From IMG/VR virus record IMGVR_UViG_2671180890_000003: DNA of 20,749 bases; one strand, 5' to 3'. Source of the stretch: a virus (Duplodnaviria > Heunggongvirae > Uroviricota > Caudoviricetes). The position numbers and the translations under genes were made by a program. Each line of letters opens with the position of its first letter. The stretch's first letter is position 1. Below the pieces are notes generated by a model, which was not told where the DNA came from, did not search any database, and was given only the letters and a program-made list of their open reading frames with translations. This document shows positions 3,281 to 18,191 of the stretch, in pieces.

Positions 3281-3384
3281 GTAACGGCCCCATCAACTGG
3301 GAGCGGATTTGAGCCCCGAATGTGTAGGCAATGTCACTTAACGTTTGTCGCATACCTTCCAGAAAAAGCGATTCATGAATAATA

Positions 3385-4117: not shown

Positions 4118-4267
4118 GATAATCTCACCTAAGAATTGCGTGGTTATAAATTATCATCACTGTAAGCGAATGTAAGCCACAGGCTCGTAATGTGATATGG
4201 AATTTTGATAGTTGGCTCAATATCAGTATGCCGTCCTTGGCTATTATGGTTTTGTTAGTTAGAGCGT

Positions 4268-6988
4268 CTATTCCCATTCGCTAACATCTTTCATGCCACT
4301 GAGGGTAGCTACAATCCCGGCCCTTGTCAGTTTCACGAATTCTTCAGCCCCAACGGCATCACGAATTGCTTTCATGGCAATTTTATTGGCCGAAAATCGT
4401 TTCTCTGCTGCGGCGATCGCTGCTGGTGATGCCCCTGCGCGCACTGCTTTTGTAGCTTCCTGAACGGCTTTCTCTATCGCATATCGACCACTTCTTGTCG
4501 CCCCAATCTTAGCCACAGCATTTCTTAGCGCGCCACCAGCAACCAAACCACTAATCGAACCAATTACACCACCGCCAAAGCCTCCAGCGATCGCACCTGA
4601 CTGTTGAACACCGTTCATAATCACGCCGACGATCTTTGGAAGGCCTGAATCGAGCGTTTTGAGAGCCTCAGTTGTTCTTCCCGTGCGCTCTACGTATCGC
4701 TGCGGTCTGGTACTGGCTTTAGCGAGTACACCGAACTCTTTCATCATTCTACCGAGATCTGGCGCATGACGACTGATGGCGTTTACATTCTGCTGGGTCA
4801 TGAGCTTGGCAAAATACTGGATACCTGACTCTTCACCGATTCCTCCCTTCTCTCCCTGCGCCACAGCATGCTGAAGAATAGATGCTATTGCAGGTTGGCG
4901 TTCTGCTTCCGGCAGCGCGGAGATAAGACGGTGAAAAGCTCCCGTTCCAGTGTTTGCGGATGCCTTAAGCGTATCGGCACCTTTTCTTACCATAGCGTCT
5001 GATGCGAGATCTCGACCAAAAACAGATTCGGCATTTTGTTTGGCGATAATGTAACTTTTAGAGAGATCGTTAGCTTTCTGCCATTCTGTGAGGAAGTTTC
5101 CTTTTTCAGCCATGATGCGCATGTCATCAGTGATAGCTCTGCGCATTTCTCCGGCAATCCGGGCGGCATTGGCCTTACCTGCCCGGGTGTTTGCTTGTTC
5201 AGCATCAGCAAACTTAGCACGCCATGCCTTCATCCCGTCGAAGGTTATGCCGCCACCTTGGTTGTTGGCAGCCTGAAACTGTTTCATCTCCGGGCTGAGT
5301 GGAACATTGGCTGCTTTTTCTGCTTGGACGACAGCCATTCCATTACTCATTTTCATCCTTTCGCGTGGCATCGTGCTTCGCAGTTCTGCCCATGCCATAT
5401 TCTCTGCTGTTTTCATATCACTGAGGCTCGCGATGATGCGCTCTTTAATTGCTGCGCTTTTTTCTGATGCGCTTCCAGACTCAGCACCGAAATCAGACAA
5501 CTGCTTATTCAACTTTGAGGATATTTCATTGAAGGCCGTAAGGTGAGCATCCTGAACATTCCCAGGAGTTGATGCCAGAACACCTTCTGCTTGGGCAATT
5601 CCACGACTACCTGAGCGCATTCCAGGCGTCAGGGTGTTGATATTAATACCAGTGATTTTCGCCGCCTTAGCGACATCATCTCTGACGTTTGATGCCTGCG
5701 ATGCGATATGCTCTCGGCCTACGGCAGAACGCGCTGCTTTCGATACATCATTGGCGGTTTCCAGAGTATTTGCTGCCCCTAACACATGGCCTGATTGATT
5801 TGTATTACTCCGCAATACATCTCGCATTACGTCACTGGCTGTCTGTCCGCTCTTTATTAAAGCGCGTGCTCCTAGCGATCCTGCTAGGCCAATACCTGTC
5901 TCTTTTGCTAGGTCTTCTGGGCTGATCTGCCCGTTCTTTTGGGCGTTCACCAATGTACCTGGCAGGTTTTCTGCCAACATACTAGCCACCTTTGTGGCCG
6001 CACGTTCAGCACGTGGAGCGTTGGCAACTGAAGAAGCTGCGGTAGCTGCCTTTCCTGCACCTAATCCTGTAATAAGGTAAGGTGCTAGCTGCTCACCAGC
6101 CTGCGCGTATGGATCTGTAGGTTGGTCTACTGGGCGAAAGACTGGTGATATGGGCGTGTATGTGCCATCACCCACACCAAGCTTCTGAGCTGCCCATGCT
6201 CCGGCTGATTGCGCCGCATTGACTACCCCCACGCCTGCGTCCATTACATCAAACGGTATATTAGCAATCCCTCTGGCCATCTGCTCTGGCGCAGCTTTCA
6301 GTCCTGGCGAAAGATATTCCATCTCAGGATTAAGGTTAGACTTGGCTACTTGCTGCTGCGGTTCCCCGGCATTTTCATCGGCGAGAAACTGAGCTCTTTT
6401 CTGCTCCCATGAACTGGCTGTTGGTAGTCCTGCTTCTATGTTCTTAAATTGCTGACGTTTTGCTTCCCATGCAGAAATATCTCCCACCTGAGAGATTTCT
6501 TTATCAAGCTCTGAGTAGTCAGGCTGCTGAAGATTGCGATGTTGACTGGTTTGTGCAAACTGCAAGATTTCACTGTCATCAGGGATTATTCCGGCATCTG
6601 CAAATTTACTTACGTAATTAGCCGTTTCATCTGGCAGTGTAGATTTACCGTTTCTGACGGCATTAATACGAGCATAGCCAGAATTATACCCAGCCAATGC
6701 CATACCTATATCACCAAATCGCTTCATTCCTTTATTGAGATGGTTTGCTGCGATATCCATTTGCTTTTCAAATGGCAGTGAGCGCGGATCTGTTCCACGA
6801 TAACCAGCATCACTCATTACTGAGGGCATCAGTTGAGCAAATCCTCTAGCTCCTTTCGGTGACTCGGCACTTCCGTTACCACTAGATTCATTGCCAACTA
6901 ATGTTTCCATCGTCCCTGATGGGAAACCATATTTTTCATCGAGATGACGGGAATAGGCTTTCTGTTTTTCTGTCAGTTGTGCCATCAT
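4268..6988 (-). CDS. Large virion-type protein with N-terminal SLT lytic transglycosylase domain (about 906 aa); internal-virion/ejection protein-like (T7 gp16-type architecture) or tape-measure-like
   Basis: SLT signature ES...GARGFAQLMP...AGYNSGYARI in the first ~150 aa. The remainder is Ala/Gln/Ser-rich and helical, with a Gly-rich hydrophobic C-terminus. ATG 6988 forms an ATGA overlap with the upstream stop; the track start is 6994. Confidence 0.8.
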   Translation of the reverse strand: MMAQLTEKQKAYSRHLDEKYGFPSGTMETLVGNESSGNGSAESPKGARGFAQLMPSVMSDAGYRGTDPRSLPFEKQMDIAANHLNKGMKRFGDIGMALAGYNSGYARINAVRNGKSTLPDETANYVSKFADAGIIPDDSEILQFAQTSQHRNLQQPDYSELDKEISQVGDISAWEAKRQQFKNIEAGLPTASSWEQKRAQFLADENAGEPQQQVAKSNLNPEMEYLSPGLKAAPEQMARGIANIPFDVMDAGVGVVNAAQSAGAWAAQKLGVGDGTYTPISPVFRPVDQPTDPYAQAGEQLAPYLITGLGAGKAATAASSVANAPRAERAATKVASMLAENLPGTLVNAQKNGQISPEDLAKETGIGLAGSLGARALIKSGQTASDVMRDVLRSNTNQSGHVLGAANTLETANDVSKAARSAVGREHIASQASNVRDDVAKAAKITGININTLTPGMRSGSRGIAQAEGVLASTPGNVQDAHLTAFNEISSKLNKQLSDFGAESGSASEKSAAIKERIIASLSDMKTAENMAWAELRSTMPRERMKMSNGMAVVQAEKAANVPLSPEMKQFQAANNQGGGITFDGMKAWRAKFADAEQANTRAGKANAARIAGEMRRAITDDMRIMAEKGNFLTEWQKANDLSKSYIIAKQNAESVFGRDLASDAMVRKGADTLKASANTGTGAFHRLISALPEAERQPAIASILQHAVAQGEKGGIGEESGIQYFAKLMTQQNVNAISRHAPDLGRMMKEFGVLAKASTRPQRYVERTGRTTEALKTLDSGLPKIVGVIMNGVQQSGAIAGGFGGGVIGSISGLVAGGALRNAVAKIGATRSGRYAIEKAVQEATKAVRAGASPAAIAAAEKRFSANKIAMKAIRDAVGAEEFVKLTRAGIVATLSGMKDVSEWE

Positions 6989-8304
6989 TGCCATCCCTTA
7001 AGTTTTGCCTGATAGTAACTTTCCGGCAGATAGCCATGTGCGGTCACATAATCCTTAACCAGTGAAGGATCCTGCAACAGCATTTTGGTATCAGTTTCTT
7101 CGTCCTTAGATTTGGTTACAGGAATACCGAGCCCGGCAATCTGTCGTTTCTGCATTCGAATAATTACGTCCTGCGCTTTATTCAACTCTCGCAAAAATGC
7201 CTCATTGCTGGTTGCTGACTTAATGCCATTTTGAGATTGCATAAGGGCAGCCCTTTCCCCTTCGGTTGGGTTAGAGCCAAAAGTCCCTTTGAGGCTAGGC
7301 AGAATAACCTTTAGGTTGTATTCATCAGCTTTGGCGCGTAGGCTTCGTGTGTCTTCTGCTACATCAGGAAGGAATCCAAACCCCAGCGTCAGGGGGTTAT
7401 AGTTCTGCGAGCGGGTAACGGCCGAAGGATGTTTCCCTACAATTCCCGCCAGTTCATGACCCACTTCAAGCGCAGAGTTCAAGGAGTCGATGTTACCTGC
7501 AACAGTATTAATTTTATCGTTCATCTTCTCCACTTTCGCCTGCTGTATCTTGCTCAGTTCAGCATTGAGCTTGTCTCTCTCGATGTCATTTTGAGCACGT
7601 CCAAGTCGTGCTTTCAGAACCATTTCTCTCGTGCGTAGTTGGTTATCGGATAGGACTTTGAACTGCTCCATATCGAGACGTCGATTACCCTGTTCCGCAT
7701 TAACCTGAGCATTATATGCGGATGTATCTGCGTTCTGCTGTGCAATGCTCTGCCCTTGCTGCTTCTCTTGAACACTAAAGTAACTATTTGGATCAGCATG
7801 GAGGTGGATGAGGTCAGTGATTCTGTTGAATTCCTGTGGGTCATTCTGCCAAGACTGATAAACCTCTTCAGCAGGAAGACCAAATCGCTGTAATACTGGA
7901 TTTGCCTGCTGAATGGCCTTCTGCATGGTCAGTGGATCTCCAGTTTGTGACGCAAGACGCAGATTCATGGCAGCGTCAGCGGTCTGTCGATTTTGCTCAG
8001 CATCAATGAATCCCATCTGTTTTTGAGAATCAGCCATAAACTGGGGATACTGGGCCATTAACTTCTGCACGCCAACACGATCATTATTAGCTACCGCACT
8101 ACCCAACCGTGCCTGATATTCTTTTAACTGCTGGGAAATTTGCGCCTGCTGATTAATCTCAGCAACGCCTCTTAGCCCCTGTAGCGCCATTAAACCTACG
8201 TTTGGCTGCTGCTGATACTGCACAGGCTGAGGAACGGAAGAACGAGGAGCATTATCATTTTGCGGTGCCATGCTAGGCAGCCCGCCAAGTTGCCATGTCG
8301 CCAT
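6985..8304 (-). CDS. Gln-rich coiled-coil protein (439 aa); putative virion internal protein (gp15-like position)
   Basis: Track ORF. Start overlaps the upstream stop by 1 nt (TAATG) and the stop overlaps the downstream start: a translationally coupled block. Confidence 0.7.
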   Translation of the reverse strand: MATWQLGGLPSMAPQNDNAPRSSVPQPVQYQQQPNVGLMALQGLRGVAEINQQAQISQQLKEYQARLGSAVANNDRVGVQKLMAQYPQFMADSQKQMGFIDAEQNRQTADAAMNLRLASQTGDPLTMQKAIQQANPVLQRFGLPAEEVYQSWQNDPQEFNRITDLIHLHADPNSYFSVQEKQQGQSIAQQNADTSAYNAQVNAEQGNRRLDMEQFKVLSDNQLRTREMVLKARLGRAQNDIERDKLNAELSKIQQAKVEKMNDKINTVAGNIDSLNSALEVGHELAGIVGKHPSAVTRSQNYNPLTLGFGFLPDVAEDTRSLRAKADEYNLKVILPSLKGTFGSNPTEGERAALMQSQNGIKSATSNEAFLRELNKAQDVIIRMQKRQIAGLGIPVTKSKDEETDTKMLLQDPSLVKDYVTAHGYLPESYYQAKLKGWQ

Positions 8305-8981
8305 TAGAATCCAAGCCCCCCAACAAGACCAATAAGCCCACCACCAATAGCCCCGGCGACATTACCTATACCCGGAACAACGGAACCAAGTTGCGCACCC
8401 GCTAAAGCGCCTGATGCCGCCCCACCAATACCACGCGCAAGACTGGATGGCTGCTGCGCCTGACCTGCACGAATAGCGCCAAGCCCCTGCAAGAGTTGCC
8501 CGGTATTATTGGCGTAGTTTTGCCCTGCTGTTGCCTGCCCTGATGCCGCATTCATCCCGACATTTAGCAGGTTTCCATAATTTTGCATTTGCCCACTGAG
8601 CCAATTGTTATAAAGCATGGGCGCAATGGAAGATAACTGGTTACTGGTAGCTGTTGAGCCAAGCCCCCCGGTAGCTTCTGCTGAGACAAGGTTCTGATAA
8701 CGGGCCTGATCTGCCTGTGTTTTATATAAACCAGAACCAAAGAAATCATTCGCGGCTTTATTCTGCCCTTCCAGAGTCATCAGCCCTTGCAGTTGTTGTA
8801 AAGCAGGCAATCCGACTTCTGCATACGGCTTGAGATTATTCATCACCGTATTCCACTGCTCGCGCTGCAAATCAATTGCCTGCTGCTGGGCCTTCGCCTG
8901 AGCTTTAGAGGCACCACCATCACCGCCTTTTTCGTATACGGCACGATTGAGATGTTTATGAGCTATATGGGTAATTAACAT
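8304..8981 (-). CDS. Gly/Gln-rich protein (225 aa) with hydrophobic Gly-rich C-terminus GGLIGLVGGLGF; putative membrane-inserting virion protein (gp14-like position)
   Basis: Track ORF, coupled to its neighbours; composition suggests membrane association. Confidence 0.65.
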   Translation of the reverse strand: MLITHIAHKHLNRAVYEKGGDGGASKAQAKAQQQAIDLQREQWNTVMNNLKPYAEVGLPALQQLQGLMTLEGQNKAANDFFGSGLYKTQADQARYQNLVSAEATGGLGSTATSNQLSSIAPMLYNNWLSGQMQNYGNLLNVGMNAASGQATAGQNYANNTGQLLQGLGAIRAGQAQQPSSLARGIGGAASGALAGAQLGSVVPGIGNVAGAIGGGLIGLVGGLGF

Positions 8982-9436
8982 TCGCTGAATTCCTTATATT
9001 GTTGCCGAGTTAACTGATAAAGCGTTACGCCGACGGGTTTACCACATCTGATATAAGCATCATCAAGGTGACCAACACGGGTAGCGCCAAGCAAACGGAT
9101 AATTGCCCGTCCGTATTTCGTGGTGTCAGGAACCATAGTGATGCTATTAAGGAATGGTGAGTTTTCGAGAAGCCATTTGCAGAATAATCGATGCCCTTGC
9201 AGTGCATATTCGCCACGGAATCCGGGGTCGTACACCGCATGGCATTCAACAACGCTATGCCAGAAGTTACGCACTTCATGAACGCCAGCCAGCACCAATC
9301 CTTCGTAGATGCCGAGATATACCGCATCAGGCTTGATGTAGTACGTGTGCCCCGGCTCAACAATATTTTCGGTATTGGCAGGCTCGTTAAGAAAGGCCTG
9401 TAATCGCACCGGGTTATCAATAAATTTTAGTTCCAT
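8975..9436 (-). CDS. Hypothetical protein (153 aa), first gene of the ejection-like block (gp13-like position)
   Basis: Track ORF with ATG start; overlaps the downstream gene by 7 nt. No family recognised. Confidence 0.6.
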   Translation of the reverse strand: MELKFIDNPVRLQAFLNEPANTENIVEPGHTYYIKPDAVYLGIYEGLVLAGVHEVRNFWHSVVECHAVYDPGFRGEYALQGHRLFCKWLLENSPFLNSITMVPDTTKYGRAIIRLLGATRVGHLDDAYIRCGKPVGVTLYQLTRQQYKEFSEC

Positions 9437-9452
9437 GCGGTGCCATCCATTT

Positions 9453-9614
9453 TCACATACAGCCTGCCAGCGCCTTATCTATTAACCCTCGTGCAATTTC
9501 ATGCAGAGTTGGCGCTACTCCAATTCCTGATTTTTTACGCTGCTCTTCCTGAATTTTCTTTATCGCTTCCATTTGCTTCTCACTTATCAATACCGGCTTT
9601 ACTGAAATAGCCAT
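9453..9614 (-). CDS. Small putative ribbon-helix-helix regulator (53 aa, MAISVKPVLISEKQMEAIKK...)
   Basis: Below the track length cutoff. ATG 9614 is preceded by AAGGGGG SD; the stop is 16 nt upstream of the 153-aa gene. The strand-helix-helix pattern is my inference. Confidence 0.4.
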   Translation of the reverse strand: MAISVKPVLISEKQMEAIKKIQEEQRKKSGIGVAPTLHEIARGLIDKALAGCM

Positions 9615-9709
9615 AACGCCCCCTTAGAACTGTATAAAACAACAGTTATTATAGTTTCACAAATCGCAATATTCATCATCGTAATTGCAAAATATGAAAC
9701 AAATAGCAC

Positions 9710-9741
9710 AAAAAAATGCCACCGCTCAGTAGCTGGTGGCA
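9710..9741 (-). terminator. Intrinsic terminator for minus-strand transcripts: stem TGCCACC(GCT)/(AGC)GGTGGCA followed by T7 on the minus strand
   Basis: Plus strand shows A7 (9710-9716) then the hairpin 9717-9741. Ends the primase-side transcription unit before the ejection-like block. Confidence 0.6.
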
Positions 9742-9751
9742 TCGTTCTGTG

Positions 9752-9781
9752 TGTCAGGTTTTGACAGGTTTTTTATGGACT
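9752..9781. repeat. Copy A of hairpin + T6 + ATGGACT element (TGTCA-ggttt-TGACA, T-run 9769-9774, ATGGACT 9775-9781)
   Basis: TTTTTTATGGACTCYRAAAACT matches copy B at 20 of 22 positions. Contains a perfect TTGACA hexamer at 9761-9766. Confidence 0.5.
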
Positions 9782-10108
9782 CTAAAAACTATATTTATGG
9801 TATCGCATTACTCTTCACGGCAGGCGCTTTTCAGTTCTGCCCTTGCTTCTGGCTCCATTGGTAATTTGATTCGCGATCAGCTATGCGGATGGTTTGCTGA
9901 ACAGGCATAACAACATCTCAGAGGCTATTTTTTGAACTACGAAAATTTCGTAGGTCTCTCCTTCAAAAACGTCACGCCCTTGTACACTGGATTTTACAAA
10001 AGTCTCGTAAAACTCTTTCCTGTTCTGGGCTATGTGCCAAACCGCAGCGAATACCTCCGTCTGCCAGATGAGCAAAACATACCTTATAAAGAAAATCGCT
10101 GTTTTTGC

Positions 10109-10210
10109 TGTACCACCTGTACCACCATGTCACAAACCCTTGTGTGGCGCGGCCTGTAGGTGGTACAGGTGGGTAAAAATGACCTCTCCCCACCTGTACA
10201 GACCTGTACC
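10109..10210. repeat. Iteron cluster built on CCTGTAC/GTACAGG (TGTACCACC x2 tandem at 10109-10126; GGTGGTACAGGT at 10159-10170; CCTGTACAGACCTGTACC at 10193-10210)
   Basis: Read directly from the sequence; the same 12-mer family occurs in the 11230-11335 cluster. Candidate ori/crr-type binding sites for the adjacent primase. Confidence 0.75.
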
Positions 10211-10216
10211 ATTTAT

Positions 10217-10954
10217 TTAATTTTTACCCATAGCAGCACATAATCCCTTTTTTGAAATATTGAAAAATGCGTTCATTCTTCCCGCTGGCTTAACCTTGTA
10301 GCCGCTTGCCACCATCGCCGCAATAAATGCTCCGTTGGGGATATAGTGCGGGTGATCACTGTGCTGGTGGTTTATCTGGTTATATCGCTCCACTTCATGC
10401 TTCAACGTGTCAGATGTGGGGTTATCCTGCGGGAAGCTCTCAATCTGGGCATTACTCATCCCGTTGTCTCTGATCCATCTCAGGCAGCTTTTCGCCGATA
10501 CGATAAATGACGGGTTATCAAGCGGGTTTTCCCAGTCCGCATTCCGGTTGTGGAGCGCCAGTCCGTCAAGGTTAAATTGTGGGTATTCAGCGGTAATTAC
10601 TGTCACTGCGTGGCGGATTTCAGTCTCGTCACAACATGGCTCATCTCCCACACCAGCAGGGTAATAATCTGAACCACCGGGACTGATACAGCGTTTACCA
10701 CTGAAAGGCCATTGCTTCGCCATTTCGGGTGTTGAGTGATTACCGTCGCTCCGTTCGCGCTGTGCCTCTGTCCACTGGCTGGCATATTCAGTAAATGAAA
10801 CCCTTTGCCCCTGGCGCATCCAGTGCGCAATCATAATTAAAGTGCGTTCCAGACTTTGGATGTCGCCAGCATTCCCGCACTGTGTAGCGAAACTTTTTAA
10901 TTCTTCGCGCTCCGTTCTGGTCATTCCCTGCGGTATGCAATAGTTATTGTTCAT
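10217..10954 (-). CDS. Hypothetical Cys/His-rich protein (245 aa)
   Basis: Track ORF. ATG 10954 forms an ATGA overlap with the upstream gene; GAGAGG SD. No family recognised. Confidence 0.6.
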   Translation of the reverse strand: MNNNYCIPQGMTRTEREELKSFATQCGNAGDIQSLERTLIMIAHWMRQGQRVSFTEYASQWTEAQRERSDGNHSTPEMAKQWPFSGKRCISPGGSDYYPAGVGDEPCCDETEIRHAVTVITAEYPQFNLDGLALHNRNADWENPLDNPSFIVSAKSCLRWIRDNGMSNAQIESFPQDNPTSDTLKHEVERYNQINHQHSDHPHYIPNGAFIAAMVASGYKVKPAGRMNAFFNISKKGLCAAMGKN

Positions 10955-11187
10955 GTTTTACCTCTCTGTTTTACCTCTCTGATTTCTGCTGCCATATCTG
11001 TTGGCTCTATACAGCCGTCCCGACTTGCCACGCAGGGAATAATGATTTCAACGGTATCGCCGTCAATACACATTTCAACATTCGCCCATGCCGCAATGGG
11101 TAGCCAGTCTGAACGCCCCTCAAACCGTAGCTGCCAGCCAGAGGAAGAAGCTAACTGGCGCACTTTGTAAAATGGTGTGCTCATCAT
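10951..11187 (-). CDS. Hypothetical small protein (78 aa)
   Basis: ATG 11187 preceded by GAGAGGGAA SD. The 3' end contains a 13-bp tandem duplication (10955-10980) that also duplicates the SD of the next gene. Confidence 0.5.
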   Translation of the reverse strand: MMSTPFYKVRQLASSSGWQLRFEGRSDWLPIAAWANVEMCIDGDTVEIIIPCVASRDGCIEPTDMAAEIREVKQRGKT

Positions 11188-11229
11188 TGGTTGTTCCCTC
11201 TCAGCCAGCCAGAAGAAATGCGTTTGTTA

Positions 11230-11335
11230 ATGGTATAGGTGGTACAGGTCTGGTATAGGTAAGATATTGACCTGTACCACTATAACGCACTGTTTTTAAT
11301 ACTGAATTAGCAAAATGGTATAGGTGGTACAGGTA
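11230..11335. repeat. Iteron cluster: 19-mer TGGTATAGGTGGTACAGGT x2 (11231-11249, 11316-11334), half-copy TGGTATAGGT (11251-11260) and inverted CCTGTACCAC (11271-11280)
   Basis: Read directly from the sequence; sits in the 177-bp gap immediately downstream of the primase-helicase stop. Candidate replication origin. Confidence 0.8.
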
Positions 11336-11363
11336 AAAACGTTCTTCTTGTAAAAAGACTATA

Positions 11364-13718
11364 TTAAAAAACATCATAACCCCCCATACCGATCAGACGT
11401 GCAAACGCAGCCTGTAGAACTCCGACCTCTGGTAGTTCGTAGAACACGCCATTCCCACGGTCTGGTCTTCCATGCTTCACCAGTCCCATTTGTGCAAGTG
11501 ATTTACCCAGTAGTGATCTGGCTGCTGGTTCTTTAAGCTTTTCCCCACGCTCAAGCGACCACGCTACAAATCGACTAACCATATCCTTTGCAAACAAACG
11601 GACTTCGCCATTAAACGGAGGTTCATTGATTAGCTCGCCATAAAGAAACAATTCAACGCCAGACAGCCCCAGCAAGATTTCTTCACGTAAGGCATCGGTC
11701 TGTGGCGCTCGTTGAGGGTCAAAACCTGAGAGATCCACCCCTTTAAGATGCCAAAGCAACTTTGCGGCACCGCCATCATTAAGCCAACTGTACAGCCGAT
11801 CAAAATACTCCCGGCTCTGTGCTTTTTCAGGAGATGGCTCAAGCACGAGATAGCGGCGCTCTCTTATCCCTGCCTGTAATACCTGTGTGCTGTTACTGGC
11901 AAATATCAACCGGGCAAAATTCGGCATTGGTTCAGCATCAATTCCCTTGCGCTCAAGGTTAAACGTCGGTTCGCTAATAATCGCTTTAAGTCTGTCAGCT
12001 TCAGACGGCTTGTGGATCGTCACTTCGTCAGCAAATACCAGTAGCTTGTTAGCAAGTATTGAATTGAAGCGCCCTGAAATATGTCCCGCCCCGTTAATGT
12101 GGGCGGCGTACTGCCCCAGTATTTGCAGCAGCGGTTTAACCGTTGTGCCTTTCCCTGTGCCCGGGACAGATTTCATCACGATTGCCACGGACGGTTTTTC
12201 ATCAGGCTTTTGGATAATGTGCGCCATCCACTGGATAAGATATTGGTATGCCTCTTCATTACCGGCACAGACAACCTGCAACAGGTGATTAAGGTATACC
12301 GTGCAATCTCCTTCAATTGGTTCCAGTGCCAGCCCCTCATACAGATTAAAAACATCGTCAGGGCATTTGTCTGGTACTGGATAAAATCCTACGCCTCCTG
12401 GCTTGTAGTTCTTCCCACTCCATGACAGCCACGCCGATCCCGCCAGCTTTCTGGCGACTCTCGGTTTATGATGAAAATAATGCTGAAATTGTGATAAATC
12501 CTCGAAAACGTGCGATACACCGCCGGTTTGAGAAGGCTTTAGCGACACCACCTTGTGTTTCCCGCCGATGGTGACATGCGTAAACGTCCGGTTGATTTCT
12601 TTGAGGACAGCAATTTCATCATCGCTTAACACCTCGCCAGAACTGATCTCATTCAGCGCCCCGACTGACTGTTTGTGATTTTTCACCTGCGCCCCTTTCC
12701 CCCGTGGCTGGTACATCGAATCTTTAAATGCTGCTGTGGCTGCCGCCAGCCCGTGTTGTTGGTGATAGTCGTTCCAGTCGGCTTTATAGTCAGTCGGTGG
12801 CAGAGACACCCAGCCAGCTACGGAAATAGCGGCCCTCTCTGCGGCATCTTTCCCCGTGTTGATCCCTCCACTTTCGGAGTTTCCTTGCTGGTGATCGTTA
12901 TCTGCGGCAATGATGATTTGTGCCTGTGGATATGTTCTGCGCATGACTTCCGCTACTGGCAACAGGTTGCCAGCGTCGATTGCTGCCACTGTCATTGCGT
13001 CAGGGCGAATTAAATGGCACGACAGGGCGGTAGCCACCCCCTCAGCAATTATGATGCTGTGAGGTCGTTTCTGTGCGTTTATGGCGTGATATGCCCCCCG
13101 CTTTGCTGAACCTGTCAGGAGTCTTTTTTCACCATGTGAGGTAATTGTCTGTGCTGCTGTGACTGCGCCGGATTTATCCACCAGCGCCAGCAACAGAGAT
13201 CCATCGGGCAACACGGGGAATGTAAAATCACCTACCCCTTTCGCAACCAGATAATCAGATTTGCCGTTTACAGCCTTTCTGCGCATGTCATCAAACTGAC
13301 GGGAAAACGTATCCCGTCTTTGTTGTTCGTCCTTCTCTGCCCTTTTCAGGCGCTCCTGTTCGCGTCGCTGGCGCTCGGTTTCCAGTTGTTCCCGTTTCTG
13401 GCTGGTGGCTTCTGGTGTTTCCGTTGTCCGGTAATCAATACCCAGAACATCAGCGGCAAGCAGCGCCGCCTCTGTTGTGTCGCAGTTATTTACGCGTTTA
13501 ATTAAATCCAGCCCATCACCAGCGCCGCACTGATTACAGATGAAGCTACCGCGCCCGTTGTCATCGAACCGGAATCGATCTTTGCCCCCACATGCAGGGC
13601 AGGGAGCATGACGGCGCGGAGAGTCAGGGACATTTATGTTCAGGCAGCCCAGCACATGAGGCCAGTTGTTTTCAGACGCACTGATAACCTGACGGATAAG
13701 ATCAATGTTTCGCATCAC
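11364..13718 (-). CDS. P4 alpha-type primase-helicase (784 aa): Zn-ribbon, TOPRIM primase, SF3-like helicase
   Basis: CPACGG...CNQCG zinc ribbon; TOPRIM-like IIIAEGVATA and IIIAADNDHQQ; Walker A VPGTGKGTT and Walker B LLVFADEV. Confidence 0.85.
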   Translation of the reverse strand: MMRNIDLIRQVISASENNWPHVLGCLNINVPDSPRRHAPCPACGGKDRFRFDDNGRGSFICNQCGAGDGLDLIKRVNNCDTTEAALLAADVLGIDYRTTETPEATSQKREQLETERQRREQERLKRAEKDEQQRRDTFSRQFDDMRRKAVNGKSDYLVAKGVGDFTFPVLPDGSLLLALVDKSGAVTAAQTITSHGEKRLLTGSAKRGAYHAINAQKRPHSIIIAEGVATALSCHLIRPDAMTVAAIDAGNLLPVAEVMRRTYPQAQIIIAADNDHQQGNSESGGINTGKDAAERAAISVAGWVSLPPTDYKADWNDYHQQHGLAAATAAFKDSMYQPRGKGAQVKNHKQSVGALNEISSGEVLSDDEIAVLKEINRTFTHVTIGGKHKVVSLKPSQTGGVSHVFEDLSQFQHYFHHKPRVARKLAGSAWLSWSGKNYKPGGVGFYPVPDKCPDDVFNLYEGLALEPIEGDCTVYLNHLLQVVCAGNEEAYQYLIQWMAHIIQKPDEKPSVAIVMKSVPGTGKGTTVKPLLQILGQYAAHINGAGHISGRFNSILANKLLVFADEVTIHKPSEADRLKAIISEPTFNLERKGIDAEPMPNFARLIFASNSTQVLQAGIRERRYLVLEPSPEKAQSREYFDRLYSWLNDGGAAKLLWHLKGVDLSGFDPQRAPQTDALREEILLGLSGVELFLYGELINEPPFNGEVRLFAKDMVSRFVAWSLERGEKLKEPAARSLLGKSLAQMGLVKHGRPDRGNGVFYELPEVGVLQAAFARLIGMGGYDVF

Positions 13719-14073
13719 CGTACCCCACGTGGTCTATAGCGTTTGCGATATGGCTAACCAGCATCTGCCACTTGGTTATTCCGTAATCAGTCAGCATGCC
13801 ATCATTGTTTAGCCACATATCAAATTCAGCGGTTGTCGCAAGTTTCCACTTATCGCCGTGGACAGTCCTCATTGCTGGGTACATGAATGCGCAAATCAGA
13901 TCACAAACATCTGACGGCTTCAGAGATGTAGTAATGGTGCGTCCCTCTGGCGTCTGAATTGCCATTTTCTCTTCACCAGTAGAATGAAGGTTATGAATCC
14001 ACACAGCACCAGCAATCTTTGCCACCTGCTCTCCGATTGCGGAGCTAAGCGCCATTTCTGCATTTTCACGCAT
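13702..14073 (-). CDS. Hypothetical protein (123 aa)
   Basis: Track ORF; overlaps the primase start by 17 nt and the upstream gene by 8 nt. Confidence 0.5.
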   Translation of the reverse strand: MRENAEMALSSAIGEQVAKIAGAVWIHNLHSTGEEKMAIQTPEGRTITTSLKPSDVCDLICAFMYPAMRTVHGDKWKLATTAEFDMWLNNDGMLTDYGITKWQMLVSHIANAIDHVGYGDAKH

Positions 14074-14407
14074 GAGAACCTCCCGCTACAGTTGCGCCCA
14101 TGTCATTAACCATGCTTTGCCATATCTCACGACCGACGTCAGTCAATCCGTCCTTAGTGACGCAACGCTCAAGAAGCTCGATCCCCACGGTTTCCCACTG
14201 CGGGTAGAACACTTTCATGGCTGCCAGTGTGTAGCTATCGATCAGGCTGCGAACGCCTTTTACTCCATTGACGATTTCCACACGTACGGCCTCGCCGTCC
14301 GCATCAACCATGAAATAGTCCCCGCCGCTGGTGGAGGTAATGTGGTTATACAGTGCCGACGCATACTTATTTGCCAGCGCATTCAGTCGGAAATTTTTAG
14401 TAATCAT
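14066..14407 (-). CDS. Hypothetical protein (113 aa)
   Basis: Track ORF; ATG 14407 with GAGGATGGAG upstream. Confidence 0.5.
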   Translation of the reverse strand: MITKNFRLNALANKYASALYNHITSTSGGDYFMVDADGEAVRVEIVNGVKGVRSLIDSYTLAAMKVFYPQWETVGIELLERCVTKDGLTDVGREIWQSMVNDMGATVAGGSHA

Positions 14408-14417
14408 GGCTCCATCC

Positions 14418-15020
14418 TCAGTGCGTCACTGGTTCCGCTGGCATGCCGTTTTCATTCAGTTCAGCTATAAAGCTGTTGTGAAGTTCAGCAAGCGTTTCAC
14501 GACCAAATGGAGTCAGTGCTCCTTGTTCCACATCCATCATGGCTCTGTAGAAAATGATGGCGCGTTCTGTGCCAGACTCGATGCCAAAACGTTCTATCAT
14601 CGCTCCCTCAATGTTGTTTGCCATAGCGAGGCGCTCTGCTACTGGATACAGCGGCATGGCGACGATGCCGTTGGAATAAACAGCCACTTCGGAAGGATTG
14701 CCAGTATCATCAATGATGCTGACAGTGCCGTTTTCCTCTCTCATTTCCAGCATGAATACTGTTGCGATCAGCCATCTCCACATAATGACGTTATGCTGTG
14801 ATGTGTAATCGAAATATCCCTGGTTGCCGCCATCGGCAATAGCGAGATGTATAAACATGCCTTCATCTGGTTTATCGTCATAATCCCCGGCATCCAGACG
14901 ATTTACGGCATCAATATATGAGACGGTCTCAACGTGTTCTGTCATGCCATCGTTGCTGCGGTGCATGATGTTTACGCCGTCAGGCGTTGCTTCTGCATGG
15001 AAGGTTAAGAAATTATTCAT
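14418..15020 (-). CDS. Hypothetical acidic protein (200 aa from internal ATG 15020)
   Basis: Track ORF extends to 15125, but ATG 15020 gives the typical 8-nt overlap with the upstream gene stop and has a GAGG SD. Confidence 0.5.
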   Translation of the reverse strand: MNNFLTFHAEATPDGVNIMHRSNDGMTEHVETVSYIDAVNRLDAGDYDDKPDEGMFIHLAIADGGNQGYFDYTSQHNVIMWRWLIATVFMLEMREENGTVSIIDDTGNPSEVAVYSNGIVAMPLYPVAERLAMANNIEGAMIERFGIESGTERAIIFYRAMMDVEQGALTPFGRETLAELHNSFIAELNENGMPAEPVTH

Positions 15021-15234
15021 GTTTCGCCTCGCCTGAATGATTCTGTAACTCATATTTGCCCAACAATTCGTCTGCTTCCTGAATAGCTTCTGGTACGCCA
15101 TTGAGCAGTGACATAACCGCGCCAATCATTAACTTGTCTCTGTTGCTGGGGCTGGCCCCTTCAAGCCAGAACCCTAAAACAGTCTGAACCTGTTCGATGC
15201 GACATTGCGCTTCAATGAGCTGGATGTTGGTCAT
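15013..15234 (-). CDS. Hypothetical small protein (73 aa)
   Basis: Track ORF; ATGA overlap with the upstream gene. Confidence 0.45.
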   Translation of the reverse strand: MTNIQLIEAQCRIEQVQTVLGFWLEGASPSNRDKLMIGAVMSLLNGVPEAIQEADELLGKYELQNHSGEAKHE

Positions 15235-15494
15235 TTCGCACTCTCCACATCGATTAAACTGATATCTATCAGGGAGGTAACTTTTTGTAGCCAGCTATTG
15301 ATTACTGTCGCCTGTTCCCCTCCCACCGAGGGAATAATCTCATTCATCACATGAACCAGACCTGTGCGCGCTCTGGTAAGCCGTTCAGTCGCGCAATCTG
15401 CGGGAGTGAATGTGTCTGGATATGGCTCTTCGCGCCCCAGCAATGATTCAATTTCCAGCTCACACGGATGACGATAAATTAAGTTGATATTCAT
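15231..15494 (-). CDS. Hypothetical small protein (87 aa)
   Basis: Track ORF; GGGGGTG SD and ATGA overlap. Confidence 0.45.
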   Translation of the reverse strand: MNINLIYRHPCELEIESLLGREEPYPDTFTPADCATERLTRARTGLVHVMNEIIPSVGGEQATVINSWLQKVTSLIDISLIDVESAK

Positions 15495-15685
15495 TTTTCA
15501 CCCCCAAGAATTACCAGCTCGGCACGGGCATCGTTAACCAAAGATGAGCACGCTTTAATCGCATCCACGACATCAGCAGCGTCCATTTCTTCAGCCGAAA
15601 GACTGACAGCAACCAGGACAGCCGCTGCTTGCTCGATTAATTGAAGTGCGGACGTAAGGCGAGGGGTATTAATTGAGTTATTCAT
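15491..15685 (-). CDS. Hypothetical small protein (64 aa from ATG 15685)
   Basis: Internal ATG with GGGGG SD and 8-nt overlap with the upstream stop; the track ORF extends to 15742. Confidence 0.4.
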   Translation of the reverse strand: MNNSINTPRLTSALQLIEQAAAVLVAVSLSAEEMDAADVVDAIKACSSLVNDARAELVILGGEK

Positions 15686-15896
15686 TGGTTGCCCCCGTTT
15701 TGCATGGCATTTCGCCACCTTCCAGCAGGAAATGAACGTCACGAACGGCGAGATCCAATATCGCGAGTAACGCCTTCAGTCTTTCGTCTCGTGAGGGAGA
15801 GTTGCTCACCAGAATGTCGTTAATCACTTCTGTCAGTGTGATGATCTGGCTTGTGCGTTCGAGGGGGTCCATATGCACATCGTAGGTTTTAATCAT
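15678..15896 (-). CDS. Hypothetical small protein (72 aa, MIKTYDVHMDPLERT...)
   Basis: ATG 15896 preceded by GGAGGTGG SD. It is the C-terminal part of the 355-aa track ORF, which I interpret as a run-on frame. Confidence 0.5.
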   Translation of the reverse strand: MIKTYDVHMDPLERTSQIITLTEVINDILVSNSPSRDERLKALLAILDLAVRDVHFLLEGGEMPCKTGATNE

Positions 15897-16083
15897 GTGC
15901 CACCTCCATGCGGATACGACCAGCAAAAAAGCAGACGTGATCGCGCACCAGAGAACGGCGAGCATCGCGTTCAGACTCGGCAGCAATATGATGAATTTTG
16001 GCGGTAATTGTCGGGCAATCGCGGCGAACTGCGGCGATAATCCAGATAAATTGCGGTTTTTGGGTAGGGGTAGTAGCCAGCAT
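15889..16083 (-). CDS. Hypothetical small protein (64 aa), first gene after the candidate promoter
   Basis: ATG 16083 preceded by AAGGAGG SD. The region is GC-rich with open frames on several strands, so coding status is uncertain. Confidence 0.35.
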   Translation of the reverse strand: MLATTPTQKPQFIWIIAAVRRDCPTITAKIHHIAAESERDARRSLVRDHVCFFAGRIRMEVAHD

Positions 16084-16231
16084 GTGGCAGCCTCCTTGTA
16101 CTGGGAATTCTTCCCACCACCGGAGCTGCGAAACTCGCTGGTGGTGGACTGAACAGAGTTCGCAGTACCGGCGTACAAGGAAACCGGCCAGCCTTTCGGC
16201 TGCCCTGTCCAGCCCACCATAATTTTGCAAG

Positions 16232-16270
16232 CGACGCGGATTATAACCACATCACTGAAAAAAGTGTGAG
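16232..16270 (-). promoter_or_regulatory. Candidate sigma70-type promoter for the small-gene/primase operon (perfect TATAAT -10, weak -35, T-rich upstream)
   Basis: Minus strand reads CTCACACTTTTTTCAGTGATGTGGTTATAAT immediately downstream of the 16286-16307 terminator. No strong -35. Confidence 0.25.
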
Positions 16271-16285
16271 TCTGGCTAACGGCAC

Positions 16286-16307
16286 AAAAAAAGACGCTCG
16301 GCGCGTC
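16286..16307 (-). terminator. Intrinsic terminator for minus-strand transcripts: GACGC-tcggc-GCGTC hairpin followed by T7
   Basis: Plus strand A7 at 16286-16292 then hairpin 16293-16307; the stem is only 5 bp. Separates the regulatory operon from the primase operon. Confidence 0.5.
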
Positions 16308-16310
16308 ATG

Positions 16311-16745
16311 TGTCGCCTCGTACATTTCCGGGCTGCGAAACCCGGCACCCGTTTTATGAGGTGCCTTATAACCATAAACCGTGTTGCCGCATAACGGCAA
16401 GCTCTTTTTTATGGACTCCGAAAACTCACTATTGGAAGAACCAGAAGCACAGTACATCGCGCTCATTTCGTTAACGTCACGCGCGTGGACGAATGTTTTT
16501 GTGGAGTCACTACACGAGCGGAAGACATCATCTACGACCAGAAATTTTCTGGCGCAGCCGCTGACCTTCTCAATGCTAATATCATCGCCCGAGATTTCTG
16601 GTATGGTTAAGGCATCCGTTCCGACCACCAGCAAATGATAAACTTTGCTTGTATCTGCTGTATTAATGCCTGACTTTGCCGTCATATTTCTGGATTTTGG
16701 CGACATGCCAGCCAGTGAAAATGTCTTCTTCTGGACGGGTATCAT
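16311..16745 (-). CDS. ORF of unknown function with a strong start but unresolved 3' end (possible frameshifted or fused gene)
   Basis: ATG 16745 has a GGAGG SD and an ATGA overlap with the upstream gene. The frame has no stop until 15678 and runs through a terminator hairpin and a promoter-like region; the end coordinate is nominal. Confidence 0.3.
16384..16417. repeat. Copy B of hairpin + T6 + ATGGACT element (TTGCCG-cataa-CGGCAA, T-run 16405-16410, ATGGACT 16411-16417)
   Basis: Shares the 14-mer TTTTTTATGGACTC with copy A. On the plus strand it resembles an intrinsic terminator; it lies inside the minus-strand ORF that starts at 16745. Confidence 0.5.
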
Positions 16746-16921
16746 TGGTTAACCTCCGCGAACTCCTTCATGAAACGCGCCAGCGGTTGTACGCATGGCG
16801 ATTGATACCCGTCGCGATAAAACCTCACTCGGTTGTGAGACACGCTTTCGACAGTAACGAGTGCTCCGTGGGCATCTTTGTAGCGTTTTTGTGGTTGTGG
16901 TGTTCCTGTTGGCTTAGACAT
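16742..16921 (-). CDS. Hypothetical small protein (59 aa from ATG 16921)
   Basis: GGAGG SD and 8-nt overlap with the antirepressor-like gene stop; the track ORF extends to 17008. Confidence 0.5.
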   Translation of the reverse strand: MSKPTGTPQPQKRYKDAHGALVTVESVSHNRVRFYRDGYQSPCVQPLARFMKEFAEVNQ

Positions 16922-17747
16922 TGAGCGCCTCCAGACGCTTGGCGAGCCAGCGTTGCGACAGGCGGGTGAGTTCTCCTTTGCGCTGCTCATATTCCATGCC
17001 CATATCAATTAACGTGATATTGGTGCTTTCGAGATATGAGAGGTGCTCAAGCTGTTCTGCGTTCATATGGTCGCGAGGTTCGCCAGAATAGCCATTTATC
17101 CGCGCCCACTGCTTAGCAGTTAGCCCTCCAAGAACGATACGAGAAATCATATTGCTCTCGTTTGTGTAGTGGTGTTGCTGCGTCGTTTTCCCCTGCTCGG
17201 CACGGGCCATATTCAGCGCATCGCACATTGGCTTAAAGTTGTTTGCGGCACTGATACGGGCTTTTAGCTGGCGACGATAGCGGGCGGCGATTTCAGGCAC
17301 GCTACGCTGTAATTCTTCCTCGCACTGGATGAAATAACGACGGATAGCGCGACCCTGATCATTGCGTTCGATCATTGCCAGTTCTTTCGCCATTCCGACA
17401 CTTAACAGATAGTCTTTGCCGGGTCTGCCAGACTGCTTAATCTTGCTGTAAGCCGCGCCATTCGGGCTTTTCCCCAAATTTGGGGAAATAGTTTTATGGA
17501 CTGAGTAATCGTGCCCAATGGTGAAGTCATATTCAGAGATGCGATCAGTGATCCATGTAGAGAAGTCTTTTCCCACGCCCAACGCTTTGTGTAACGCTTT
17601 TGCGCTAACAATATTGGTTTCACGCCCACCGATATGACCAGGAATAACCGGGACAATTGCGGCAAATTCATTACCGTTAATTGTGCTCAGAGAGGCGTTC
17701 AGATGAGGGGCGGCCTCAGAAATTAATCTGCTTTTTTCGATGTTCAT
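16914..17747 (-). CDS. Phage antirepressor-like regulatory protein (277 aa)
   Basis: GGAG SD upstream of ATG 17747. The N-terminal region (NGNEFAAIVPVIPGH...SAKALHKALGV) resembles Bro-N/KilA-N type antirepressor domains; from memory, not searched. Confidence 0.55.
   Translation of the reverse strand: MNIEKSRLISEAAPHLNASLSTINGNEFAAIVPVIPGHIGGRETNIVSAKALHKALGVGKDFSTWITDRISEYDFTIGHDYSVHKTISPNLGKSPNGAAYSKIKQSGRPGKDYLLSVGMAKELAMIERNDQGRAIRRYFIQCEEELQRSVPEIAARYRRQLKARISAANNFKPMCDALNMARAEQGKTTQQHHYTNESNMISRIVLGGLTAKQWARINGYSGEPRDHMNAEQLEHLSYLESTNITLIDMGMEYEQRKGELTRLSQRWLAKRLEALNV
17472..17502. repeat. Copy C of hairpin + T-run + ATGGACT element (CCCCAAATTTGGGG palindrome 17472-17485, TTTTATGGACT 17492-17502)
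   Basis: Read directly from the sequence. Lies inside the antirepressor-like coding region, in a different reading frame from copy B, so conservation is at the nucleotide level. Confidence 0.5.
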
Positions 17748-17759
17748 TTTCAGTCTCCG

Positions 17760-18191
17760 TTAAGCGGCGTTAAACGCGTCCGGGTAGAGTTTCAGAATGT
17801 CGGCAATTTCCTGCTGAGAAAGTCCGTTGTGATCATTTATGTTCGCAAGATGGTTAATATGAGTGATCACTTTCAGAACATCACCACGGCAGGAGAAACG
17901 GTAGCGAAGGTGTGTTCCGATACCATCAGGATTCTTTTCGTCGATACGCTCCAGAGTGATTCCAAGCTGGCGTTCTAACTCTGTTGCATAGTTACGACCA
18001 GAAGACAGACGGCAGTAGCGAAGAATGTCGTTTTCTGTCCATCCCTCTATACCAGTACGCAGCATATAGACTCGGGCACGATGCTTTTTCGGTGTGCGCT
18101 TTGGTGCTTGAAGGGATTTTGTAAGGGGCGTAATATCAGATACGCGAATATCTGAATTAGCCGCCTGTAATGGGCGGTTTTTCTTTTCCAT
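17760..18191 (-). CDS. Hypothetical basic protein (143 aa)
   Basis: Track ORF; start overlaps the AlpA-like stop by 1 nt. No family recognised. Confidence 0.55.
   Translation of the reverse strand: MEKKNRPLQAANSDIRVSDITPLTKSLQAPKRTPKKHRARVYMLRTGIEGWTENDILRYCRLSSGRNYATELERQLGITLERIDEKNPDGIGTHLRYRFSCRGDVLKVITHINHLANINDHNGLSQQEIADILKLYPDAFNAA

Follow-up and report, generated by a model that had tools for sequence, protein, structure and literature searches.

A primase-helicase gene is followed by two repeat clusters

The window (the whole stretch of DNA that was analysed, 20,749 nucleotides) contains an island located between yicC and dinD, which carries int, an alpA-type HTH gene, an antirepressor gene, ash, rep and perC. 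The rep gene (11364-13718, minus strand) encodes a 784-aa primase-helicase, Pri-Rep, in which Pfam recognises a Zn-ribbon, a Toprim domain and a DUF5906 SF3-type helicase; the protein also matches the PHROGs DNA primase, and its helicase core matches the NrS-1 primase-helicase structure 6k9e. According to fold prediction, the C-terminal 135 residues (11367-11771, minus strand) form a winged helix, which would follow the SF3 helicase core as in the SaPI-type self-loading Rep. In SaPI Reps, the C-terminal winged-helix domain reads the iterons (PMC9371898), and the predicted domain of Pri-Rep is a candidate for the same role.

The first repeat cluster (cluster B, 11231-11334) begins 30 nt past the stop codon of rep, from which it is separated by an AT-rich leader (11335-11363, 76% A+T). 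It is followed by a two-gene cassette, consisting of a 78-aa ORF (10951-11187, minus strand) and a 245-aa ORF (10217-10954, minus strand), and then by the second cluster (cluster A, 10107-10211). The ORF and unit coordinates agree with the original prediction, according to which the clusters bracket these two genes downstream of the primase-helicase. Adjoining cluster A is the tail of the replicon module (10020-10106) with a conserved AAAAACAGCGATTTTCTTTATAAGG, and further downstream an intrinsic terminator (9707-9751, minus strand, fold z-score -5.7), which closes the rep transcription unit, stands between cluster A and an ejection-protein operon.

Ten copies of GGTAYAGGT were found in the 20.7-kb window, whereas dinucleotide-preserving shuffles contained 0.14 on average and never more than 1; nine of those in the window fall within 10115-10210 and 11232-11334. 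When up to two mismatches were allowed, the 12-mer occurred 9 times versus 0.77 expected, and none of 100 shuffles reached 9. The 9-bp unit of both clusters is TGGTAYAGG. The 19-mer TGGTATAGGTGGTACAGGT, previously noticed as an exact duplication at 11231-11249 and 11316-11334, is indeed duplicated, and the full exact repeat is a longer 21-mer, AATGGTATAGGTGGTACAGGT, at 11229-11249 and 11314-11334. The related units noticed at 10109-10210 were likewise recovered in the unit map of cluster A, which extends over 10107-10211.

Starting from rep, cluster B opens with the proximal terminal pair (11316-11324 and 11325-11333, plus strand), which together reads TGGTATAGG TGGTACAGG(T) at 11316-11334 and, read in the rep direction, is oriented away from rep. 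The pair is followed by a 36-nt AT-rich spacer (11280-11315, ~73% A+T), a candidate DNA-unwinding element containing AATTCAGTA, which is likewise present in the spacer of the EcCICFT073 origin. Beyond the spacer there is a lone unit in the opposite orientation (11271-11279, minus strand), a position that is filled in all relatives, and three direct iterons (11231-11239, 11240-11248 and 11251-11259, plus strand), which at spacings of 9 and 11 bp occupy 11231-11259 and close the first half of the putative origin.

In cluster A, the second half opens with a pair made of a perfect unit (10203-10211, minus strand) and a degenerate one (10193-10201, minus strand), followed by an internal iteron (10161-10169, plus strand) and its degenerate neighbour (10152-10160, plus strand). 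A GC-rich spacer with GCCGCGCCA and a short hairpin (10125-10151), also present in the Kluyvera-like and Buttiauxella relatives introduced below (L043 and L002) and in EcCICFT073, leads to the distal terminal pair (10107-10115 and 10116-10124, minus strand). This pair reads TGGTACAGG TGGTACAGC on the minus strand and is inverted with respect to the proximal pair, so that the outer pairs of A and B form an inverted repeat of 23 nt (87% complementary); the two clusters are mutually inverted and are not copies of one long unit. We considered the GC-rich hairpin as a conserved structural element and dropped it, as the spacer is AT-rich in L045, L050 and L056.

Neither a DnaA box (at most one mismatch) nor an IHF consensus site was found in 10000-11400, which distinguishes the locus from DnaA-dependent iteron plasmid origins of the RepA/RepE type, with their DnaA boxes and often IHF sites. 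Rfam gave no RNA families in 9400-11400. A full-text literature search for the TGGTAYAGG iteron returned no relevant paper; the iteron figure of PMC6092414 may include it.

The same iteron follows rep in seven other genera

When the C-terminal 145 residues of Rep were used as the query, the hits were confined to fragments of this protein, and the matches of its C-terminal half in viral and metagenome contigs were nearly all identical copies; the relatives were recovered with a 385-residue query. The comparison with the iterons of related elements, which had been proposed as a check, revealed the same iteron directly after rep in relatives of the Rep helicase/C-terminal half from seven other genera. 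The proximal iteron pair after the rep stop codon was also found in L002, L040, L041, L043, L044, L045 and L051.

In the capsid-forming PICIs of Yersinia (L041), a Kluyvera-like source (L043) and Moellerella (L045), the iteron of the window occurs in the same group order and in one unbroken array of about 210 bp; such uninterrupted relatives have ~12 iterons directly after rep. Their Reps are 53-56% identical to the window Rep over the C-terminal half and differ from it in lacking the fused Zn-ribbon/Toprim primase. Only 15-17 nt are present at the position of the window's cassette, and in the alignment the counterpart of the pair at 10193-10211 comes immediately after the first half in these three arrays; in the Kluyvera-like element, moreover, the layout of the three direct iterons is identical to that of the window. 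The capsid-forming PICIs carry neither cassette gene, and downstream they have capsid, protease and portal genes, whereas the window has ejection proteins.

The array was also found in split form. The window shares with the Buttiauxella (L002) and Raoultella (L051) elements a two-gene cassette that separates iteron group 3 from group 4. The Salmonella element (L040) has 4.4 kb of DNA in the gap, which encodes SSB, ProQ and other cargo, and the second half of its array is degenerate apart from the terminal pair. The insertion point is different in Xenorhabdus (L050), where the repeats are arranged differently around the two genes. Homologues of the 78-aa protein are encoded at the same place in L002, L003, L040, L050 and L051. 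Pfam, PHROGs, PADLOC and NCBIfam gave nothing useful for the 78-aa and 245-aa proteins. Symbiopectobacterium (L042) has no array, its locus being disrupted by insertion sequences, and no obvious iterons were seen near rep in Methylomonas (L055).

The inverted outer pairs flanking a two-gene unit would also be expected if the 78-aa and 245-aa genes formed a small mobile cassette with the clusters as its terminal inverted repeats. We rejected this explanation, to which we give hardly any credence: the same ordered repeats exist without the cassette in the relatives, they flank other cargo in Salmonella and are differently arranged around the genes in Xenorhabdus, and no transposase or recombinase is encoded within the cassette. 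The two layouts could differ either because a contiguous origin acquired the cassette or because a split one lost it.

The C-terminal half of Rep and the repeats were exchanged as one block

The window represents an EcCIMP1-like PICI in E. coli and not a P4-like element. EcCIMP1 is the PICI of E. coli MP1 and is mobilised by the P22-like helper phage Kapi1 (PMC11773190); that paper describes no origin, and the word 'iteron' is absent from it. The two elements have in common an antirepressor, an ash gene, the N-terminal primase of Rep, DUF2824, P22-like ejection proteins and perC, and the order int, alpA, antirepressor, rep and perC is that of Gram-negative PICIs. However, they differ in the integration site (proA/tRNA-Thr in EcCIMP1, yicC-dinD in the window) and in the Rep/origin region, which in EcCIMP1 comprises TOPRIM+DUF927 and GTTGGTTCA iterons, and in the window DUF5906 and TGGTAYAGG. 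A near-identity search of 9400-13800 against phage records yielded no match, and the element is not a deposited phage. The sid, delta and psu genes are not annotated and were not among the ORFs scanned.

Outside 10020-12693 the window and EcCIMP1 are 96-99% identical. The differing segment, whose left edge is at 10019/10020, consists exactly of Rep residues ~342-784, cluster B, the cassette and cluster A. Rep is a chimera, in which residues 1 to ~341 are common with the EcCIMP1 Rep (96% DNA identity) and residues ~342-784 are part of the swapped module. Judged from the sequences, the origin and the C-terminal half of Rep have been exchanged as one block relative to EcCIMP1.

Across the loci compared, the iteron sequence is specific to the Rep allele. 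The 21 loci with a complete Rep that has only the N-terminal primase in common with the window Rep are devoid of the TGGTAYAGG motif; instead, they have their own 9-bp iteron right after rep, which is GTTGGTTCA, TGTTGTCTCA, TAACCCGT, GGTAGGGAT or CCGGTCACA. Altogether, six iteron classes sort with six classes of the Rep C-terminus. The window itself contains, in addition, a non-cognate 'orphan' array of the EcCIMP1 class (900-1020, plus strand), composed of three GTTGGTTCA, 43 AT-rich nt and three TGAACCAAC at 21-bp spacing. In EcCIMP1, the cognate iteron forms two arrays, which are separated by 8.4 kb and the second of which adjoins perC.

The original prediction regarded the clusters as an ori/crr pair for the adjacent primase. 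Since the repeats travel together with the Rep helicase/C-terminal half across genera and were part of the module swap, we read them as the iterons of the neighbouring Rep, belonging to one replication system, and this part of the prediction stands; its P4-type ori/crr part does not, as discussed below.

These comparisons also bear on the possibility that the repeats are operator or activator sites, cluster B for the cassette and cluster A for the ejection-protein operon. Both clusters are intergenic and upstream of minus-strand genes, cluster B being upstream of the 78-aa gene, and the 245-aa protein, the model of which gives weak winged-helix-like matches at the C-terminus, could be the factor. 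However, no sigma-70-like promoter was predicted in cluster A or B, and the terminator after cluster A intervenes before the operon, which together with its upstream DNA is 98.8% identical in EcCIMP1, an element without the TGGTAYAGG motif. Moreover, the array is present in capsid-forming PICIs that do not have the cassette genes, and the 245-aa family also adjoins another iteron class (L049). We therefore rejected the operator explanation as very improbable.

Both halves of the array are conserved

When compared with the window, the iteron columns of the first half were 87% identical and the spacer columns 37% (9 loci), and those of the second half 77% and 45%, respectively (7 loci, six genera), although this contrast is partly inflated by the anchoring of the alignments on the iterons. 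The distal pair (10107-10124) is the best conserved portion of the second half in all seven aligned loci, and the distance between the internal iteron and the terminal pair is constant at ~45 bp across nine loci.

It could be argued that only cluster B is a working origin and that cluster A is a remnant decaying since the insertion of the cassette. No second half was found within 4 kb downstream in L044, or within 6 kb in L003, whose rep is truncated at the N-terminus; the inner units of the Salmonella second half are degenerate, as are two of the six units of cluster A. The elements L044, L003 and L040 suggest that the distal half may be dispensable. Nevertheless, the contrast between iteron and spacer columns in the second half, the nearly invariant terminal pair, and the retention of cluster A in 129 E. 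coli genomes and inside the swapped replicon module all argue against decay, and in the L052 allele one change brings a degenerate unit back towards the consensus. A remnant is thus, in our view, quite unlikely.

The split array has the architecture of a PICI origin

The pri-rep/ori region of EcCICFT073 is an experimentally validated Gram-negative PICI origin (Fillol-Salom et al. 2018, PMC6092414), and we compared its layout (L047 12010-12240, iteron CTGTCTACC) with the window group by group. Read in the rep direction, the EcCICFT073 origin opens with a forward pair, which a 39-nt AT-rich spacer separates from a single reverse unit and three forward ones; then come two to three units in reverse, an internal unit, a GCCGCGCCA hairpin and, last, a reverse pair. 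As in EcCICFT073, the array of the window is located directly 3' of rep, and its 9-bp iterons occur as tandem pairs and as oppositely oriented groups on the two sides of an AT-rich spacer. The groups follow each other in identical order, the three direct iterons have the same layout, and the GCCGCGCCA element again stands ahead of the last pair. The differences are the iteron itself (TGGTAYAGG instead of CTGTCTACC), the absence of BLASTP similarity between the two Reps, and the 1.0-kb two-gene cassette that breaks the array between groups 3 and 4. The locus accordingly combines the features of Gram-negative PICI origins, i.e., a position 3' of rep, an iteron pair and four further units on either side of an AT-rich spacer, an ordered architecture, a Rep-allele-specific iteron and a PICI host.

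The locus also resembles the Rep/ori of SaPIs, in which a self-loading SF3 helicase-initiator with a C-terminal winged helix, a fold also predicted for Pri-Rep, is encoded immediately upstream of its iterons, and an AT-rich centre has oppositely oriented iterons on either side (PMC9371898). SaPI iterons are nevertheless 5-6 nt long and belong to a Gram-positive lineage, and as far as tested the proteins are unrelated at the sequence level.

We conclude that the two clusters are probably the halves of one PICI-type origin of the adjacent Pri-Rep, split by the cassette. The clusters are considered halves of one origin, rather than an origin and a second element, because the array is contiguous in the capsid-forming PICIs and in EcCICFT073. 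The kind of origin is already known, whereas the split layout has so far not been described.

In phage P4, the initiator iterons are also located in two places, 4.7 kb apart, with crr directly 3' of alpha, and further likenesses of the locus to P4 are that the initiator is a multifunctional primase-helicase, that the short iterons are tandemly paired with a spacing of about 9 bp, and that one iteron block is directly 3' of the initiator gene and a second one kilobases away. One could thus assume a P4-style pair, in which cluster B is the origin proper and cluster A a separate crr-like cis enhancer bound by the same initiator and looped to the origin. The distance between the halves, which varies among elements from 17 nt through about 1 kb to 4.4 kb, and the two EcCIMP1 arrays are in line with this assumption. 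However, P4 alpha and the window Rep are 33% identical over residues 8-338 and have nothing in common beyond the primase domain; Rep is not homologous to the origin-binding C-terminus of alpha. P4, according to its record and sequence, has TGTTCACC as its type-1 iteron and two 120-bp direct repeats as its crr; the window clusters are built of neither. As the two blocks form one continuous array in the closest cassette-free relatives and in EcCICFT073, the P4-style explanation differs from ours in its wording on mechanism and does not imply a separate element, and we consider it rather unlikely. The likeness to P4 ori/crr survives as an analogy: one initiator and two iteron blocks kilobases apart.

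Discussion

From the architecture of the locus we infer Rep binding, melting, looping, the need for the distal half and origin firing. In the mechanism that we propose, the C-terminal winged helix of Rep would read the 9-bp TGGTAYAGG, and Rep bound to the inverted iteron groups would assemble its SF3 helicase on the 11280-11315 spacer, which would thereby be opened. The Toprim/Zn-ribbon part of the same Rep would then prime synthesis without DnaA. The cassette between the third and fourth iteron groups implies that Rep either loops across ~1 kb or fires from cluster B alone, in which case cluster A would be an auxiliary block for binding. Moreover, since the halves are kept at varied distances, any joint function must tolerate distance.

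A more far-reaching idea, which we put forward tentatively and consider less likely than not, is that the PICI origin serves as a modular clamp, in which Rep holds the inverted halves together across any DNA, and the gap is a protected cargo slot. The gap is 17 nt in the capsid-forming PICIs, 1 kb in the window, 4.4 kb in Salmonella and maybe 8.4 kb in EcCIMP1. The cargo of the slot would ride along when Rep and the origin are exchanged between satellites and would be the first DNA amplified at induction. If the clamp is real, the 900-1020 array would be the far half of the earlier replicon, left stranded in the window, and a Rep of the EcCIMP1 type in the same cell could perhaps use it for cross-replication.

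So far, a PICI origin has been taken to be a compact cassette, some 200-300 bp long and immediately downstream of rep, and engineered phage-delivery vectors already make use of such origins as conditional replicons (bioRxiv 10.1101/2022.09.30.509847). If the kilobase split is kept across genera, the ori of a satellite could not be delimited by the first intergenic region after rep, and accessory genes inside the replicon module would move with Rep/origin swaps, as seen in comparison with EcCIMP1. The natural 17-nt, 1-kb and 4.4-kb variants would in that case represent a tractable test case for the question, standing since P4 ori/crr, of how a self-loading SF3 initiator uses distant iteron blocks. 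The results also allow the origin to be annotated in satellites of the EcCIMP1 group, where such an annotation was missing, and the table of Rep classes and iterons predicts which satellites would cross-replicate or be incompatible.

Repeat family and layout

The repeat clusters were present where the original prediction had placed them, and the exact duplicate proved even longer, the 21-mer AATGGTATAGGTGGTACAGGT occurring at both 11229-11249 and 11314-11334. The 9-mer GGTAYAGGT had 10 copies in the 20.7-kb window, whereas dinucleotide-preserving shuffles gave 0.14 on average and never more than 1, and 9 of these 10 lay inside the two clusters (cluster A, 10107-10211; cluster B, 11231-11334). 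When up to 2 mismatches were allowed, the 12-mer had 9 matches in the window versus 0.77 expected. The iteron unit is the 9-bp TGGTAYAGG, found mostly as tandem pairs.

All genes of the region are on the minus strand. In the direction of rep, the gene for the 784-aa primase-helicase (Rep; 13718-11364) is followed by an AT-rich leader of 29 nt, cluster B, the 78-aa ORF (10951-11187), the 245-aa ORF (10217-10954), cluster A and an intrinsic terminator (9751-9707). Past the terminator lies the P22-like ejection-protein operon (4268-9436), encoding in this order DUF2824, gp7-like, gp20-like and 908-aa gp16-like proteins, the last with an SLT lytic transglycosylase domain; an IS66 element disrupts the gp16-like gene in strain M160133. 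Cluster B consists of 2 forward units, 36 nt (~73% A+T), 1 reverse unit, 11 nt and 3 forward units, and cluster A of 2 reverse units, ~22 nt, 2 forward units (1 degenerate), a GC-rich spacer of ~27 nt with a short hairpin, and 2 reverse units. Neither DnaA boxes nor IHF consensus sites were detected when the region was scanned, and the cluster region contained no Rfam families.

Allelic differences were also observed. The degenerate unit CCTGTACAG at 10200 is CCTGTACCG, nearer the iteron consensus, in E. coli SEV1 (L052), and most remaining L052 differences in cluster A are in spacers or in the other degenerate unit. Where the two ORFs join, the 13-mer TGTTTTACCTCTC is exactly duplicated in tandem (10954-10979); the E. 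coli alleles L052 and L053 carry a single copy, and in them a 76-aa ORF extends into the beginning of the 245-aa ORF.

Iteron class and the C-terminal half of Rep

Clusters of TGGTAYAGG were absent from all the loci (L004-L028) whose Rep has nothing but the N-terminal Zn-ribbon/Toprim primase in common with that of the window. The 21 of these with a complete Rep have another 9-bp iteron array (GTTGGTTCA, TGTTGTCTCA, TAACCCGT, GGTAGGGAT or CCGGTCACA) about 25-70 nt past the rep stop, and these iteron classes sort with the classes of the Rep C-terminal tail. TGGTAYAGG was found immediately past rep in the loci sharing the DUF5906 helicase and C-terminus, namely those of Buttiauxella (L002), Pantoea (L003), Salmonella (L040), Yersinia (L041), Kluyvera-like (L043), Erwinia (L044), Moellerella (L045), Xenorhabdus (L050), Raoultella (L051) and Shewanella (L056), the last despite a Rep identity of 53%. 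Judged by this distribution, the motif travels with the C-terminal half of Rep and not with the N-terminal primase.

Exchange of the replication module

The window represents an E. coli chromosomal island with yicC on one side and dinD on the other. It carries genes for an integrase, an alpA-type HTH protein, the antA/antB antirepressor, ash, the primase-helicase, ejection proteins and perC; capsid and terminase genes were not found in this PICI-like island. Three RNAs on the minus strand scored above the Rfam gathering score: a C4 antisense RNA (16137-16224, 81 bits), the isrK Hfq-binding RNA (16287-16364, 69 bits) and, in the int/alpA interval, the int-alpA RNA (19415-19481, 66 bits).

Over 2810-10019 and 12694-18201 the window is 96-99% identical to EcCIMP1 of E. 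coli MP1, a PICI whose excision and transfer by the P22-like phage Kapi1 have been demonstrated experimentally and for which no origin was described (PMC11773190). The sole large difference, 10020-12693, contains the part of rep for residues ~342-784 together with cluster B, both ORFs, cluster A and 86 further nt. In this segment the Rep of EcCIMP1 has TOPRIM+DUF927 as its C-terminal part and the iterons are GTTGGTTCA, whereas the window has DUF5906 and TGGTAYAGG. The window's rep is recombinant: codons 1 to ~341 (Zn-ribbon and Toprim) show ~96% DNA identity to EcCIMP1, and from codon ~342 the helicase and C-terminus belong to the DUF5906 lineage, as in capsid-forming PICIs. The exchange point in rep (12694) coincides with the primase/helicase domain border, and the other module edge is at 10019/10020. 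The DNA left of cluster A, including the region upstream of the ejection operon, is common to EcCIMP1, which lacks the motif. Since both clusters lie inside the exchanged segment, they are parts of a single replicon module, swapped in one piece.

A complete second array of a different iteron class was observed at 900-1020 (plus strand), immediately upstream of a perC-like ORF (576-863, minus strand), and also in L048 (10736-10860). It comprises 3 tandem GTTGGTTCA, 43 AT-rich nt and 3 copies of TGAACCAAC spaced 21 bp. GTTGGTTCA belongs to the EcCIMP1-type TOPRIM+DUF927 Rep. As the element of the window no longer encodes such a Rep, this array is without a cognate Rep there. EcCIMP1 has the same perC-proximal array in inverted orientation, 8.4 kb from the rep-proximal one.

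Contiguous and interrupted arrays

Three capsid-forming PICIs (L041, L043 and L045) contain the iteron groups of the window in the same order as a single unbroken array: 2 forward units, ~37 nt, 1 reverse, 9 nt, 2-3 forward, 15-17 nt, 2 reverse, ~22 nt, 1 forward, ~35 nt and 2 reverse. The window departs from them solely at the 15-17 nt gap, which is replaced by 971 nt of coding sequence with short flanks. Clusters B and A are thus probably the first and second halves of one predicted PICI-type origin for the adjacent Rep, with the two-gene cassette between them.

Two other functions of the clusters were considered. That the iterons serve as operator or promoter sites is unlikely, as no sigma-70-like promoter was found in either cluster, a terminator stands between cluster A and the next operon, and the array occurs also where both cassette genes are absent. 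For this last reason it is equally unlikely that the clusters are inverted repeats of a mobile cassette.

The split layout is found in other genera too. The cassette separates the halves also in Buttiauxella L002 and Raoultella L051; in Salmonella L040 a homologue of the 78-aa protein, SSB, ProQ and other genes intervene, the second half lying 4.4 kb downstream with degenerate inner units. In Xenorhabdus L050 the small cassette gene separates the first pair from the remaining array, past which lies the 260-aa gene. In the E. coli PICI L049, where Rep is of the AAA_25 type and the iterons are AAAGTGGGGAG, the homologue of the 245-aa ORF comes first among the genes past a contiguous array. No second half was found in the 4 kb of downstream sequence covered for L044 or the 6 kb for L003, and the distal half may be dispensable. 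Columns under the iterons of the window were 87% (first half, 9 loci) and 77% (second half, 7 loci) identical to it, compared to 37% and 45% for the respective spacer columns, a contrast somewhat inflated because the alignment was anchored on the iterons.

Comparison with known origins

The origin of EcCICFT073 (L047) has been validated experimentally: a plasmid with pri and ori was maintained and a pri plasmid without ori was not (PMC6092414). Its architecture is that of the window, and both have AATTCAGTA in the AT-rich spacer and GCCGCGCCA ahead of the last iteron pair, although the EcCICFT073 iteron is CTGTCTACC and similarity between the two Reps is undetectable. GCCGCGCCA with a short hairpin precedes the terminal pair at 10125-10151 in the window, 12185-12215 in L047 and 5865-5895 in L043, origins that belong to two unrelated Rep/iteron classes. 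In another three relatives an equally long AT-rich spacer takes its place. Across nine loci the internal unit and the terminal pair keep a constant spacing of ~45 bp.

The original prediction had regarded the clusters as a P4-like ori/crr pair, which the comparison did not bear out. P4 alpha shares with Rep the primase domain alone (33% identity, residues 8-338), the P4 iteron is TGTTCACC instead of TGGTAYAGG, and the P4 crr (4291-4590) is built differently, from two 120-bp direct repeats directly 3' of alpha and 4.7 kb from ori. A functional analogy to P4, in which a single initiator would act on distant iteron blocks, is nevertheless reasonable and is strengthened by the varying spacing between the halves among elements.

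PICIs are already known to have iteron origins 3' of their rep genes. A full-text literature search for the iteron sequence, its coverage excluding the figure of E. coli PICI iterons in PMC6092414, returned nothing relevant. What appears to be new is the pairing of TGGTAYAGG with the DUF5906 Rep, the presence of 1-4.4 kb of cargo within the array in several genera, and the block transfer of a split array into the EcCIMP1 backbone.
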